This document shows positions 2,656-6,074 of a stretch of 39,337 bases of DNA, piece by piece. A program made the position numbers and the translations under genes. Below the pieces are notes generated by a model. It saw only the letters and a list, made by a program, of their open reading frames with translations. It searched no databases and was not told the DNA's origin. Source of the DNA: Halobacteriaceae archaeon. Lineage in GTDB: Archaea; Halobacteriota; Halobacteria; Halobacteriales; Halobacteriaceae. The stretch covers positions 1-39,337 of the forward strand of contig JBDGTS010000034.1 in NCBI GenBank assembly GCA_042216675.1, in the 5' to 3' direction. Within the stretch, counting starts at the first letter, position 1. Each line of letters opens with the position of its first letter.

Positions 2656-2910
2656 GTGTCAAACTCCACCCGTGACCACGCCCCACCCGCCGCAGACGGG
2701 TCGCCGCTCCGAGCGACCCTGCTCTCGGGCCCTCTCGCCGCCGCCGGCTTCTGGACCGGCATCGCCCTGCCGTTCCTCTACGTTCCCCTCCTGCTGGCGG
2801 GGCCCAGCGGCGTCGCCGAACAGCAGATCGCCTTCGTCCTCATCGCCCTGCACGGCGTGGCCCTCCTCGTGGGCCACAATCACCGGCAGGACGCCGCGCA
2901 GGAGGATTGA
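2656..2910 (+). CDS. Small membrane protein (hypothetical)
   Basis: TATATA at 2611-2616, GAGGTGA Shine-Dalgarno before GTG, two hydrophobic helices (GFWTGIALPFLYVPLL). Confidence 0.7.
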   Translation: MSNSTRDHAPPAADGSPLRATLLSGPLAAAGFWTGIALPFLYVPLLLAGPSGVAEQQIAFVLIALHGVALLVGHNHRQDAAQED

Positions 2911-2951
2911 GTCGGCAACAGACATATTATACCCCGGAACTGAGACGTAGT

Positions 2952-3572
2952 ATGGCCGCACACGGCCGCCGTCGGCTCCGCGACCTGTTCGACGAGTCTC
3001 CCACCCCCCACATCGCCCACGCGCCGCGAACACACCGCCGTGACTTCTACGTCGCCACGGACGGGTCGTTCGCGGCCGACGGGAGCGGACTCGGCGCCAT
3101 CATCGAGACCCAAGACGGCGAGCGCGTCGCCCGCGTGTCGCTCCCCGACGACGCCCCGGACAACAACGTCGCGGAGTACCGCGCGCTCCACCTCGGCCTC
3201 GACGTCCTCGCTGCGCGGACCCCCCGCGACGCCCGCGTCGGCGTCCTCCTCGACCACGACCAACTCGCGGAGAACGTCAACTCGGCGGTCCTCGCGGACC
3301 GACAGACCGACTACAAGCCCCTGAAGCCGGTGTCGGTGCCCGCTGAGAGCGGTCACCACTGGCGCGGCATCCGCGCCCGCCTCGCCGGCTTCGACGAGGT
3401 GCGGGCGGCCCGCATCGACAGCGACCTGAACCCCGCCCACCCCCTCGCGAACGCGCCCGAGCGGTACGCCCACGTCAACGACGAGAGACCCTCGTGTCCG
3501 CTCCCCTCGCTGGAGTCCGACGAGCCACAGATTCCGCCGCCGTCGCGGGCGGACCGGGGGGTTTCGGACTAA
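2952..3572 (+). CDS. Ribonuclease H-fold protein (haloarchaeal RNase HI-like)
   Basis: YVATDGS, GLGAII, NNVAEYRALHLGL, LLDHD and NPAHPLA motifs follow the RNase HI order. Confidence 0.8.
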   Translation: MAAHGRRRLRDLFDESPTPHIAHAPRTHRRDFYVATDGSFAADGSGLGAIIETQDGERVARVSLPDDAPDNNVAEYRALHLGLDVLAARTPRDARVGVLLDHDQLAENVNSAVLADRQTDYKPLKPVSVPAESGHHWRGIRARLAGFDEVRAARIDSDLNPAHPLANAPERYAHVNDERPSCPLPSLESDEPQIPPPSRADRGVSD

Positions 3573-3615
3573 CCACCTTTTTGCGCCGCCTCGGCGCAAA
3601 AAGCTGGACCAAAAA
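3573..3615. repeat. Irregular hairpin element, copy 1
   Basis: CCA-C-CTTTTTGCGCCG-CCT-CGGCGCAAAAAG-C-TGG-ACCAAAAA, followed by two further GC hairpins (about 3618-3638 and 3643-3663). Confidence 0.9.
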
Positions 3616-3706
3616 GGCGGCGCGGCGTCGCCGCGCCGTGAACCGGCGGCCCCCGGCCGCCGGATGCGTTTCCACGGCCGCTACCGGGAACCGCTACTGC
3701 ACCGCC

Positions 3707-3767
3707 ACCGCCCTCAGTTTCCGTTCTGCGCGTCCACCACCGCGACGGCCGCCAGATTCACGATGTC
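3707..3767. repeat. 61-bp duplicate of the maeB 3' end
   Basis: 59/61 identical to 3812-3872; reads [17 protein letters not shown] on the minus strand. Confidence 0.95.
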
Positions 3768-3771
3768 ACTG

Positions 3772-3812
3772 CCACCTTTTCGAGCGAGGCGCTCGAAAAG
3801 CTGGACCAAAAA
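3772..3812. repeat. Irregular hairpin element, copy 2
   Basis: CCA-C-CTTTTCGAGCG-AGG-CGCTCGAAAAG-C-TGG-ACCAAAAA; same outer arms as copy 1, different but fully paired inner stem. Confidence 0.9.
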
Positions 3813-3818
3813 CCGCCC

Positions 3819-6074
3819 TCAGGTCCCGTTCTGCGCGTCCACCACCGCGACGGCCGCCAGATTCACGATGTCTTGGACGTCGTCGCCTCGCTGGAGGACG
3901 TGGACCGGCTTGTCCATCCCGACGAGCATCGGGCCGATGGCGTCCGCACCGCCGAGTCGCTGGAGCAGTTTGTAGCCGATGTTGCCCGCTTCGAGGTTCG
4001 GGAAGACCAGTAGGTTCGCCGGATCGTCGAGTTCCGAGAACTCGTAGGTGCCCCGGAGGATGTCCTCCACGACGGCGGTGTCGGCCTGCATCTCGCCGTC
4101 GACCGGGAAGTCGATGCCCTCCTCGTGGAGGAGTTCGACGGCCTCGCGGGACGCCGCGGTACTCTCGTTCGAGACGCTTCCGAAGTTCGAGTAGGAGAGC
4201 ATCGCCGCGCGCGGTTCGACGTTGAACTGCCGGGCGAGGTCCCCGGAGTGGCGGGTGATTTCGGCGAGCGTCTCGGCGCCGGGGTCGACGTTGACCGTGC
4301 AGTCCGCACAGAAGACGACGCGGTTCTTGAACGCGAGCATGTAGACGCCGGCGACCCGTTCGGCGTCCGGCGCGGTGCCGATGACCTGCAGGGGCGGGCG
4401 GAGTGCCGAGGGGTAGTGGTGGGTGAGGCCGGTCAGCATCGCGTCGGCGTCGCCGGACTCGACCATCACGCTCCCGAGGTAGTTGGGGTCGCGCCGGATG
4501 AGGTCCCCCGCCTCGCTCCGCGTGACGCCGCGACGCTTCCGGAGTTCGTACAGTCGGTCGGCGTACTCGTCGAATCGCTCGTCGTCGCCGTCCGTGTCGA
4601 TGACCTCCGGATCGAAGTCGAGACCCAAGTCGTCGATGGTGGCGTCGATGACGTCGCTGTCCCCGAGCAGGACCGGTTCGGCGATGCCCTCCTCGATGAG
4701 TTGGTACGCCGCGCGGATCATCTTCTCGTCGTCGCCCTCCGAGAGCGCGACGCGCTTGGGGTCCTGTCGGGCCTTGTTGATGACGACGCGCATCATCTCG
4801 CGGGACTTGCCGAGGCGCGCCTCCAAGCGCTCCCGGTACTCCTGCTCCTCGATGTCGGTGCGGGCGACGCCGCTCTCCATCGCCGCCAGCGCCACGGCGG
4901 GCGCCACCTCGAACAGCACCCGGGGGTCGAGTGGCTTCGGGATGATGTACTCGGGGCCGAACTGGAGGGGCTGGTCGCCGTAGGCCCGCACGACGGCGTC
5001 GGGCACGTCCTCGCGTGCGAGGTCCGCGAGGGCGCGGGCCGCGGCCACCTTCATCTCCTCGTTGATGTCGGTGGCGCGCACGTCCAGCGCACCCCGGAAG
5101 ATGAACGGGAAGCCGAGTACGTTGTTCACCTGATTCGGGTAGTCGGAGCGCCCCGTCGCCATGATGACGGTGTCGTCGCGGGCGCTCTTGGCCTCCTCGT
5201 AGCCGATTTCGGGGTCGGGGTTCGCCATCGCGAAGATGATGGGGTCGTCGGCCATCGACCGCACCATCTCCTGATCGACGATGCCGGCGACGGAGAGACC
5301 CACGAAGACGTCCGCACCCTCCATCGCGTCCGCGAGGTCGCCCTCGGGCACGTCGCGGGCGAACTCCCGCTTGTACTCGTTCACCTCGTCGGCGCGGTCC
5401 TCGGTGATGATGCCCGTCGAGTCCACCATCGTCACGTTGTCTGGGTCGACGCCCAGCGAGATGTAGAACCGCGCGGAGGCGATGGCGCTCGCGCCGGCAC
5501 CGGAGAACACCACCTCCACTTCCTCGAGGTCCTTGTCGGCGATGTCGGCGGCGTTGAGGAGTGCCGCGCCGGAGATGATGGCCGTCCCGTGTTGGTCGTC
5601 GTGGAACACGGGCACGTCCATGCGCTTTCGGAGTTCGGACTCGATTTCGAAGCACTCCGGGGCCTTGATGTCCTCGAGATTCACGCCGCCGAAGGTCGGC
5701 TCCATCGCCGCGATGGACTCGATCATCGCGTCGGCGTCGTCGAGGTCCAACTCCACGTCGAACACGTCCACGTCGGCGAAGCGCTTGAACAGGACTCCTT
5801 TGCCCTCCATCACGGGCTTGCCGGCCTGTGCGCCGATGTCCCCGAGGCCGAGGACGGCGGACCCGTTCGAGACGACGCCCACCATGTTGCCCTTGCTCGT
5901 GTACCTGAACGCGTCGTCGGGGTTCTCCGCGATTTTGCGGCAGGGGGCCGCGACCCCCGGCGAGTACGCGAGGCTCAGGTCGCGTTGGGTGTTCGTGGGC
6001 TTCGTCGTCGTGATGGCCAGTTTCCCCGGCGGGTCGCGCTCGTGGTAGTCGAGCGCATCTTCGTCCAGTCCCAT
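3819..6074 (-). CDS. maeB: NADP-dependent malic enzyme with C-terminal phosphotransacetylase-like domain
   Basis: 751 aa; [46 protein letters not shown]; PTA-like DGEMQAD and FPNLEAGNI. Confidence 0.97.

Follow-up and report, generated by a model that had tools for sequence, protein, structure and literature searches.

A covarying hairpin repeat at gene ends of Halobacteria: a candidate two-way terminator, often bracketed by duplicated gene ends

We describe a family of small, non-coding, structure-conserved repeats of the archaeal class Halobacteria, starting from two irregular hairpins in a 39,337-nucleotide stretch of DNA from a Halobacteriaceae archaeon (GenBank assembly GCA_042216675.1, contig JBDGTS010000034.1, positions 1 to 39,337; hereafter the window). 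The window is one whole contig of a 2.15-Mb, 58-contig assembly of 68.8% G+C (hereafter G000) that is 80% complete, and all searches of that genome reported below are limited to this extent. The family is class-wide and its helices covary. It is apparently unpublished, and the window holds a clean instance of it. On balance, we favor the reading that this is a non-autonomous repeat of conserved structure, which inserts at gene ends, duplicates a long piece of its target and is kept there as an oligo-T terminator working in both directions. New here are the short form of the element, a tally at the level of the class, a tabulation of the element against Y1 transposase genes, pairs of filled and empty sites, and a microhomology confined to one of the two junctions.

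The two hairpins, copies a and b, lie between an RNase H-like open reading frame (ORF) on the plus strand and a convergent gene for a malic enzyme fused to a PTA domain on the minus strand (Table 1). Copy a directly abuts the TAA of the RNase H-like ORF (3570-3572), and 6 nt separate the malic enzyme stop codon (complement of 3819-3821) from the end of copy b's tail. The sole non-pair in each hairpin is a C-C mismatch at the identical stem position, and the inner stems differ in sequence yet pair fully, GCGCCG/CGGCGC in copy a and CGAGCG/CGCTCG in copy b. A repeat finder reported the two hairpins as inverted repeats with 16-nt arms at 94% (I2, copy a) and 15-nt arms at 93% (I3, copy b). The pattern CCACCTTTT-N10-25-AAAAGCTGG occurs twice in the window versus a mean of 0.00 in 100 dinucleotide-preserving shuffles (0/100 with the motif), and folds are significant on both strands (z of -4.5 and -4.2). 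Copy a continues into two GC hairpins, H2 and H3, with GTGAAC between them and GATGC after the second; H2 followed by CCTTTTTGG, when read on the minus strand, forms a hairpin with a T-run. Thus far the locus is as the first-pass annotation had described it, with a shared mismatch, different but fully paired inner stems, two further GC hairpins after the first copy and a site between convergent genes. A candidate pairing of the left half of copy b with 3884-3903 (I1, 80% complementary) was rejected, being at chance level by a rough estimate for an 800-nt G+C-rich stretch.

The hairpins belong to a family of nine good copies in the 2.15-Mb genome, more than the two from which further copies had been predicted. 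Exact and relaxed patterns found eight of them, on contigs C1, C5, C17 (two), C25, C27, C30 and C31, and a covariance model built from these eight (R1) added C19:13208-13256 (46 bits) together with two weak matches on C57 and C8. The consensus is CCACC-T4-5-(variable paired stem)-A4-5-GCTGG-ACCAAAAA. Common to all copies are the outer arm and the T and A runs, the T-runs being invariant in every copy, and most copies also have the 13-nt GCTGGACCAAAAA. The inner stem, by comparison, has four variable pairs that differ among copies yet still pair: paired cells amount to 98.3%, compared with 84.5 +/- 2.3% for shuffled sequences and 41-47% when partners are slid. Both sides have changed at five pairs, and the covariation score of 0.345 versus 0.086 was reached by 0/500 shuffles. 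The weak copy on C57 has a paired change in the outer arm itself (CGACC/GCTCG) and keeps the A-T pair and the C-C mismatch. The first-pass annotation had also proposed that the core is flipped between copies a and b. Their loops do read CCT and AGG, but no rule follows from this: the nine loops (CCT, AGG, AAG, ATG, AAG, CTT, CTT, ACG, ATT) vary, so the flipped core is one of several loop states, although complementary loop pairs recur (AAG/CTT and CCT/AGG).

Sequence shared outside the hairpin links the copies further. Apart from false positives in coding sequence, a search of the genome found the H2-GTGAAC-H3-GATGC modules beside C17a, C27 and C30 only, and an identical 29-nt stretch of H2 is common to C27 and C30. 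The right arm of copy a has a 15-nt word in common with C27 and two rare 10-nt words (5-6 occurrences in the genome) in common with C1 and C30, the one in C30 at the same offset. Unlinked copies are therefore homologous over up to ~135 nt. The unit measures 41-135 nt, has no coding capacity, and has inverted outer arms, CCACCTTTT(T) and (A)AAAAGCTGG. Outside the elements we found none of these half-motifs in the genome but one stray CCACCTTTT; no longer autonomous element is indicated by half-sites, nor did we find an insertion sequence with CCACCTTTT or AAAAGCTGG ends.

We found that the family extends through much of the class. R1 matched 33/56 genomes of the same taxonomic family, in 12/15 genera, at E <= 1e-3, and 69 of 151 sampled Halobacteria, in 35/58 genera and 8/9 families, at E <= 1e-4. 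The 151-genome sample comprised genomes at least 90% complete with 40 candidates per genome scored, and the latter tallies are therefore lower bounds. Together with the strong covariation and the three copies that carry extra hairpin modules, this breadth bears out the proposal, made from the window alone, of a modular, structure-conserved, non-coding family. The genera are unevenly occupied: a match was present in 0/19 genomes of genus g20, 9/10 of g32 and 5/5 of g37.

In other genera the element has a long form of 60-85 nt, consisting of CCACC-T5, a 5-bp stem, TCGGGT, a GC hairpin, ACCRCTC, the returning stem, A5 and G/TCTGG-ACCAAAAA, usually followed by a second GC hairpin; the short form with a 6-bp inner stem is peculiar to G000. 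The outer arms covary among relatives (CGACC/GCTCG, GGACC/GCTCC, GCACC/TCTGC). Copies are also conserved at orthologous genes across species or genera, namely those for TFS (three genera), Lhr helicase, glutamate dehydrogenase, GuaA (GMP synthase) and dihydroorotate dehydrogenase, and orthologous copies at the same gene differ by paired changes. After the Lhr helicase gene, for example, GGACC/GCTCC has become GAACC/GCTTC and the C-C mismatch is kept. In Rfam, no family matched the window copies (best score 17.5 bits, far under threshold), and only tRNAs were matched in 20 loci with long-form copies. Full-text literature searches returned no description of such a repeat, although the supplements of PMC3119063 and PMC7237163, with their element tables and terminator lists, lay outside those searches and may hold entries.

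Two observations come from outside the sampled genomes. Among viral contigs, the pattern TTTT-N12-40-AAAAKCTGGACCAAAA occurred in 52 stretches, all of 16-42% G+C and none from a high-G+C halovirus; the sole element-like match among them is L183:401-440, on a 26.5-kb low-G+C IMG/VR contig with a local G+C of 0.42, where CCACCTTTTTGCCGAAAAAGCTGGACCAAAAAA has the element's outer arms and its tail but hardly any inner stem. In a soil metagenome run (X3), another organism's contig has a malic enzyme end that matches the window up to 3872 joined directly to a long-form element (CCACCTTTTTCCGCTCGGGG...), the same junction of gene end and element in an environmental relative.

We next consider how the element sits at its site. 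Copy b is bracketed by a 61-nt direct repeat (D1; 59/61 identical), which the first-pass annotation had overlooked. The right repeat is the true end of the malic enzyme gene, and the left repeat is a second version of its last 17 codons and stop, displaced so that it ends 4 nt short of the CCACC of copy b. The intergenic order is thus the stop of the RNase H-like ORF, copy a together with H2, H3 and its tail (3573-3706), the spare gene end, copy b, and the real gene end. In two public sequencing runs, which may be the window's own source, a 118-nt unitig spans 3738-3855 without a difference, at depths of 8.6 and 24.9 versus 10.8 and 24.5 in the flanks; since it crosses the junctions around copy b at a depth near that of the flanks, these junctions are not an assembly artefact in those samples. 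The 61-nt repeats are 97% identical while the two window hairpins differ at 4/6 inner stem pairs, and copy b is therefore not a tandem copy of copy a. No identical donor for copy b was found in the genome.

Comparison with relatives identified empty sites as well as filled ones. The malic enzyme is 73-82% identical as protein in 80 haloarchaeal loci, which formed the set compared here, with its best matches (79-82% identity) in Halobacterium, Halarchaeum and a metagenome-assembled genome labeled 'Halobacteriaceae archaeon'. In the closest relatives (L098, L050, L072 and L101), the same convergent pair has 4-30 nt between its stops and no element. Five other loci (L102, L080, L079, L096 and L059) carry the element in the window orientation together with a duplicated gene end; L096 has undergone two rounds, and L059 has three tandem units too degenerate for R1. 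Two loci (L086 and L089) carry it in the opposite orientation, directly after the stop and without a duplicate, and in L082 it lies about 100 nt downstream. The malic gene thus carries the element in both orientations in different lineages, and each spare copy at the malic loci matches the C-terminus of its own genome.

A second set of sites came from a Halobacterium-like genus with three glutaredoxin paralogues, each of which has filled and empty orthologous sites. At paralogue B, the empty site (genome G048) consists of two convergent stops that abut, and the filled site carries a 39-nt duplication ending exactly at the stop. At paralogue C, the spare copy keeps the GCC-TGA of the empty ortholog and the two gene-side copies read GCG-TAG. 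From these comparisons we conclude that the element was added and that the original gene end survives as the spare copy. Because the converging stops are only 0-4 nt apart in paralogue B of G048 and in L098, with no element between them, the inserted sequence came from elsewhere.

Coordinates of the features at the window locus are collected in Table 1.

Table 1. Features of the intergenic locus and its flanking genes, in window coordinates.
Feature	Position	Strand	Basis and remarks
RNase H-like ORF	2907..3572	+	Weak PF13456 RVT_3 match, E=1.9e-4; its ortholog converges on the malic gene in relatives too
Copy a, CCACCTTTTT-GCGCCG-CCT-CGGCGC-AAAAAGCTGG-ACCAAAAA: CCACC, T5, 6-bp stem, CCT loop, A5, GCTGG, C-C mismatch; core 3573-3607 (CCACC-TTTTT-GCGCCG-CCT-CGGCGC-AAAAA-GCTGG), tail 3608-3615	3573..3615	+	I2; R1 73.1 bits; covariation
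Right-hand modules: H2 3618-3638, (G)TGAAC 3638-3643, H3 3644-3662, GATGC 3663-3667, tail to 3706	3616..3706	+	I9 and module search
Displaced duplicate of the malic enzyme 3' end	3707..3767	minus-strand reading ends ...QNGN*	D1, 61 nt, 97%; 58/60 by flank alignment
Copy b with 4-nt spacer ACTG; hairpin at 3772-3812, CCACCTTTT-CGAGCG-AGG-CGCTCG-AAAAGCTGG-ACCAAAAA, with T4/A4, stem CGAGCG and loop AGG; core 3772-3804 (CCACC-TTTT-CGAGCG-AGG-CGCTCG-AAAA-GCTGG), tail 3805-3812; minimal, without H2/H3	3768..3812	+	I3; R1 53.6 bits
Gene-continuous repeat copy: real stop and last 17 codons of the malic gene	3812..3872		D1
NADP-malic enzyme fused to PTA domain	3819..6074	-	Pfam malic, Malic_M, PTA_PTB

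Duplicated gene ends recur across the family. We aligned the 130 nt to the left of each copy to the 260 nt on its right, with reversed sequence as the control (maximum score 12), and 37/92 copies scored above the control maximum. Without the seven copies picked through the malic or glutaredoxin genes, 30/85 did so; these 85 copies, 8 from G000 and 77 from relatives, were chosen regardless of their flanks. Scores of 24-74 with the left repeat ending within a few bases of CCACC were found for 25 of the 85, in 22 loci, and about 3 in 10 copies are therefore bracketed by a direct duplication of the adjoining gene end. The repeats measure 24-86 nt (24-77 nt among the 25 of 85) and are mostly 97-100% identical, the lowest being 84-92%. 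In all cases that we read, the spare copy abuts CCACC, and the gene-continuous copy is found on the side of ACCAAAAA, its gene being encoded on the opposite strand. The right repeat starts 0 to ~100 nt from the tail, and the gap is filled by modules of the H2/H3 type. The C25 copy resembles copy b in that a duplicate of the convergent gene's end stands on its CCACC side.

The two junctions of these loci differ in character. At the left one, 12/18 loci (10/15 if the malic gene is taken as a single case) have 3-5 nt immediately ahead of CCACC that are identical to the target sequence just past the repeat, and 1-5 odd bases precede these; in mismatched pairs of loci, such a match occurred in 13.7% (P about 4e-7). 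At the right one, microhomology was present in 1/22 loci versus 7.8% in controls. An element or remnant lies upstream of the spare copy in 7/22 duplication-bearing loci, and none does in the other 15.

Some spare gene ends share a starting point. Those of the malic gene in at least five lineages and of the three glutaredoxin paralogues start at GAC-ATC-GTG, encoding Asp-Ile-Val (GACATCGT; window 3759-3767 and 3864-3872, and also L036, L038, L043, L128 and L130), the spare end in L033 starts at GAG-ATC-GTG (GAGATCGT), and those in L102 and L044 start 4 nt later. This triplet series may be a preferred target site, although the other duplication loci do not share it and provide no target consensus. 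A related arrangement occurs at tRNA genes in other genomes of the family (L028:1500-1960, L034:1500-1790 and L041:1210-1570), where an element follows a duplicated tRNA 3' end of about 22 nt, located 140-310 nt downstream of the real tRNA with an inverted T-arm-like copy between them; in L028, a 140-150-nt unit of this locus is repeated twice.

As to where the element resides, it had been noted that such repeats often sit between convergent genes, and the family agrees with this: 8/9 copies in G000 are at gene ends. Five directly follow a stop codon, those of the RNase H-like gene, a C-terminal fragment of aconitase, an ABC ATPase, Thi4 and TFS, and others lie between convergent genes, one pair encoding a helix-turn-helix (HTH) regulator and a glutaredoxin and another encoding 6-phosphogluconate dehydrogenase and a BadF-type ATPase. 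Among the 85 copies, 60 have a coding-like gene end pointing at the element within 200 nt, with gene ends called crudely as open frames of at least 45 codons with GC3 >= 0.8 and GC2 <= 0.6. In 25/85, a same-strand stop codon lies 0-6 nt before the hairpin, and this stop is TAA in 20 of the 25.

This placement brings a T-run close behind the stop codon on either strand. In the window, T5 lies at 3578-3582 on the plus strand, 5 nt past the TAA of the RNase H-like ORF, and the minus-strand T5 (complement of 3808-3812) follows the malic stop by 6 nt. In the part of PMC7237163 covered here, a T5C run gave 95% termination in a Haloferax volcanii reporter. A plus-strand polymerase leaving the RNase H-like gene would meet T5 5 nt beyond the stop, and a minus-strand polymerase leaving the malic gene would meet TTTTTGGTCCAGCTTTT (TTTTTGG) 6 nt beyond the stop and then TTTT, with any read-through backed up by H2 plus CCTTTTTGG and then by the T5 of copy a. 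Judged by sequence, the element thus probably stops transcription in both directions by means of oligo-T. Such a two-way stop would be useful because hardly any spacer separates the convergent genes at the empty sites. The paired inner stem, the C-C mismatch and the ACCAAAAA tail, which termination does not explain, may point to recognition of a folded single strand, either DNA during spread or read-through RNA.

Several neighbors of the gene-end copies are of interest in their own right. At the copies at C27:290-314, C30:24742-24770 (-) and C31:230-254 (L004, L005 and L006), the upstream proteins are unrelated (the aconitase C-terminal fragment, the ABC ATPase and Thi4), and they terminate in ATPADD*, PATDD* and ATPADD*, GACGACTAA standing immediately ahead of CCACC. 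This sequence occurs 11 times in G000, 3 of them at these copies, and the left flank of the element may supply the last codons and the stop of the three proteins. That these tails are carried antisense remnants of the malic gene end is unsupported and was rejected, the common 18-mer being of low complexity (2 exact and 10 one-mismatch copies in the genome). Immediately downstream of the copy on C30 lies a 171-aa ORF (C30:24021-24536 (-), or L005:2322-2837) that has a CarboxypepD_reg-like domain and, at its C-terminus, an (ES)n run that ends in DDD. In two relatives, G016 and G003 (L007/L018:1490-1650 and L008/L021), a pair of elements 90-92 nt apart lies between the start of rps12 and a gene ending in ...HFDVDDIQLT*, which by gene order we take to be nusA. 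The inner copy of this pair ends ~11 nt upstream of a TTTAAGTA box, and its two members have the same sequence in G016 and have diverged in G003.

Combining junctions and positions, we propose the following history for the window. Copy a, a full-length composite, would have filled a gap of 0-100 nt between two converging genes, and copy b, a minimal unit, would later have landed 6 nt past the malic enzyme stop, duplicating about 60 nt of its target, so that the malic gene kept an intact end. Spread would be non-autonomous and not HUH-dependent, and it may have proceeded by a template switch during replication or repair, or by a nuclease making widely staggered cuts, rather than by a classical transposase. 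We favor these two routes because the duplications are long and variable and because a 3-5-nt microhomology with a small scar marks the CCACC junction; these junction features fit replication or repair, with template switching and later expansion by slippage, at least as well as they fit a transposase. A more specific version, which we put forward tentatively as possible but rather less than probable, is that the element spreads without any transposase of its own, a template switch centered on the hairpin or a structure-specific nuclease with cuts 25-85 nt apart copying a two-way terminator into a gene end and duplicating that end so that the gene survives.

A number of observations weigh against this account of a mobile terminator. 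No insertion enzyme and no donor of copy b were identified, 60/85 copies have no flank duplication, and the high identity of the repeats could reflect gene conversion in polyploid haloarchaea, not recency. The copy on C5 lies between the divergent genes purU and purS. The terminator role itself is read from position and T-runs, and the first T-run precedes the inner hairpin in both directions, so that termination leaves the conserved hairpin, the C-C mismatch and GCTGGACCAAAAA unexplained. Template-switch correction of quasipalindromes can mimic covariation without selection on structure, and covariation in a DNA palindrome can arise in this way. The C-C mismatch, however, survives paired changes of its neighbors, which argues for selection on pairing over self-correction.

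Other contrary points would be expected if nothing had moved at all. Palindromic terminators could duplicate locally, by slippage or unequal exchange at the hairpin, and be inherited vertically, their likeness kept by selection on a terminator or protein-binding motif. Much of the family does appear to be inherited vertically rather than recently moved, because copies are conserved at the TFS, Lhr, glutamate dehydrogenase, GuaA and dihydroorotate dehydrogenase genes across genera. Tandem arrays of identical units at 92-145-nt spacing are common in many genomes, and the repeat extends into the 3' part of the element itself in L146, L033 and L044; both fit local slippage as well as insertion, and the microhomology at the left junction is in keeping with it too. 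Local duplication does not account for empty orthologous sites that lack any element and have nearly abutting stops, nor for the recurrence of the 13-nt GCTGGACCAAAAA and the identical 29-nt H2 module at unlinked loci. Additionally, the near-identical repeats around dissimilar hairpins in the window, and the 15/22 duplication-bearing loci with no element upstream of the displaced copy, speak against it. We consider this explanation unlikely.

The conserved fold also raises the question of a role in RNA, the alternative named in the first-pass annotation, in which the element would be a structured 3' untranslated region or read-through element, that is, a stability, processing or protein-binding hairpin with a bulged C-C, and the features of the DNA would be by-products. 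Its helices covary with a conserved internal mismatch, it directly follows stop codons and tRNA-type ends, and folds on both strands are significant. No Rfam family matched the short or the long form, though, and the element is found in either orientation beside the same gene and has loops in complementary pairs, which argues against a single functional RNA strand; moreover, transcripts ending at the first T-run would exclude the hairpin. We therefore assign a mainly RNA-level role a low probability. Lower still is the chance that the element is a binding or cruciform site in DNA for a host protein, such as one for chromosome organization or a replication or recombination factor, whose placement is unrelated to transcription. 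A near-palindrome whose outer arms are conserved and whose inner stem is free in sequence, used in either orientation, would suit such a site. The tight placement (25/85 copies 0-6 nt past a stop), the invariant T-runs, the low copy number and the 19 genomes of g20 with none would not.

The other explanation offered in the first-pass annotation, mobilization in trans by an HUH (Y1) enzyme, fared poorly. It holds that the element is a REP/REPIN-like or IS200/IS605-derived palindrome moved as single-stranded DNA by an enzyme encoded elsewhere, and an irregular hairpin outside genes with a conserved mismatch and conserved flanks is what such a system would use. PF01797 (Y1) had 0 matches in G000, for which the 80% completeness leaves some room. 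Among the 56 genomes of the family, 17 have both the element and Y1 genes, 16 have the element only, 7 have Y1 only and 16 have neither. Y1 genes thus accompany the element in 17/33 positive genomes, but the 16 carriers that lack them include six that are 96-99% complete, and among the carriers without Y1 are G010 (99%, 8 matches), G020, G044, G015, G055 and G061. Where present, Y1 genes are multi-copy, as for IS200/IS605 insertion sequences. On these PF01797 counts, we rejected an HUH partner. The flanks point the same way: they often carry duplications of 24-86 nt, and IS200/IS605- and REP-type elements make no target duplication according to the part of PMC3119063 covered here. With ~9 copies per genome and no GTAG/CGTC head in addition, we regard this model as highly improbable.

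Placed beside known systems, the element appears to work much as bacterial REP/BIME sequences do and yet not to belong with REP-RAYT, MITEs (miniature transposable elements with inverted repeats) or PATEs. Like bacterial REP/BIME/REPIN sequences, it is a short imperfect palindrome outside genes, often between convergent genes, with stems kept by paired changes; such sequences likewise occur as singles, doublets or clusters, and roles in termination and in protecting mRNA have been proposed for them. Unlike REP-RAYT, it is archaeal, it has no RAYT/Y1 gene here or in nearly half of its carriers, its copies are flanked by target duplications, and its ~9 copies per genome compare with tens to hundreds. 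It also starts with CCACC and lacks the GTAG/CGTC given as the REP head motif in the covered portion of PMC3733652. With the MITEs, PATEs and SMRs of Haloquadratum walsbyi, as described in the covered part of PMC3119063, it has in common that it is small, non-coding and non-autonomous, has inverted-repeat ends, and is present or absent between relatives. MITEs are described there as having short duplications set by their transposase, and PATEs and SMRs as having none. In contrast to MITEs, the duplications of the element are long and variable and no parent insertion sequence with the same ends was found in G000, and in contrast to the IS200/IS605-derived PATEs, it has duplications and no Y1 TnpA partner was found in G000.

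It resembles archaeal oligo-T terminators, as far as the covered text of PMC7237163 describes them (T5C, Haloferax volcanii), in having T5 on the coding strand a few bases past the stop, here on both strands, and it differs from ordinary terminators in being a conserved, covarying family at unlinked loci with duplicated gene ends.

Two further groups were compared. IS1630/IS30-type and IS1634-type insertions make long duplications, and, as with the element, gene-end or terminator regions are targeted and the direct repeats are unusually long and variable; those insertions are bacterial and encode a transposase, and no such gene is linked to the element. Integron attC sites have the core sequences RYYYAAC and GTTRRRY, and the foot of the hairpin reads CCACC/GCTGG instead; no search for an IntI gene was made.

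Little has been charted of either archaeal termination signals or small non-coding repeats, and a single covariance model finds this family in nearly half of the sampled Halobacteria. The family supplies haloarchaeal genetics with candidate two-way terminators that can be tested, and it provides a natural record of terminator gain between converging genes that otherwise abut. Its footprint, long and variable duplications of gene ends with a one-sided microhomology and scar, offers a handle on a mechanism of insertion or duplication that fits no catalogued transposase. For annotators, short pseudo 3' ends and odd C-terminal tails beside these hairpins are by-products of the element. If true, spread without a transposase would amount to a new kind of mobility: the selfish repeat would earn its keep by insulating convergent genes that are packed closely together.

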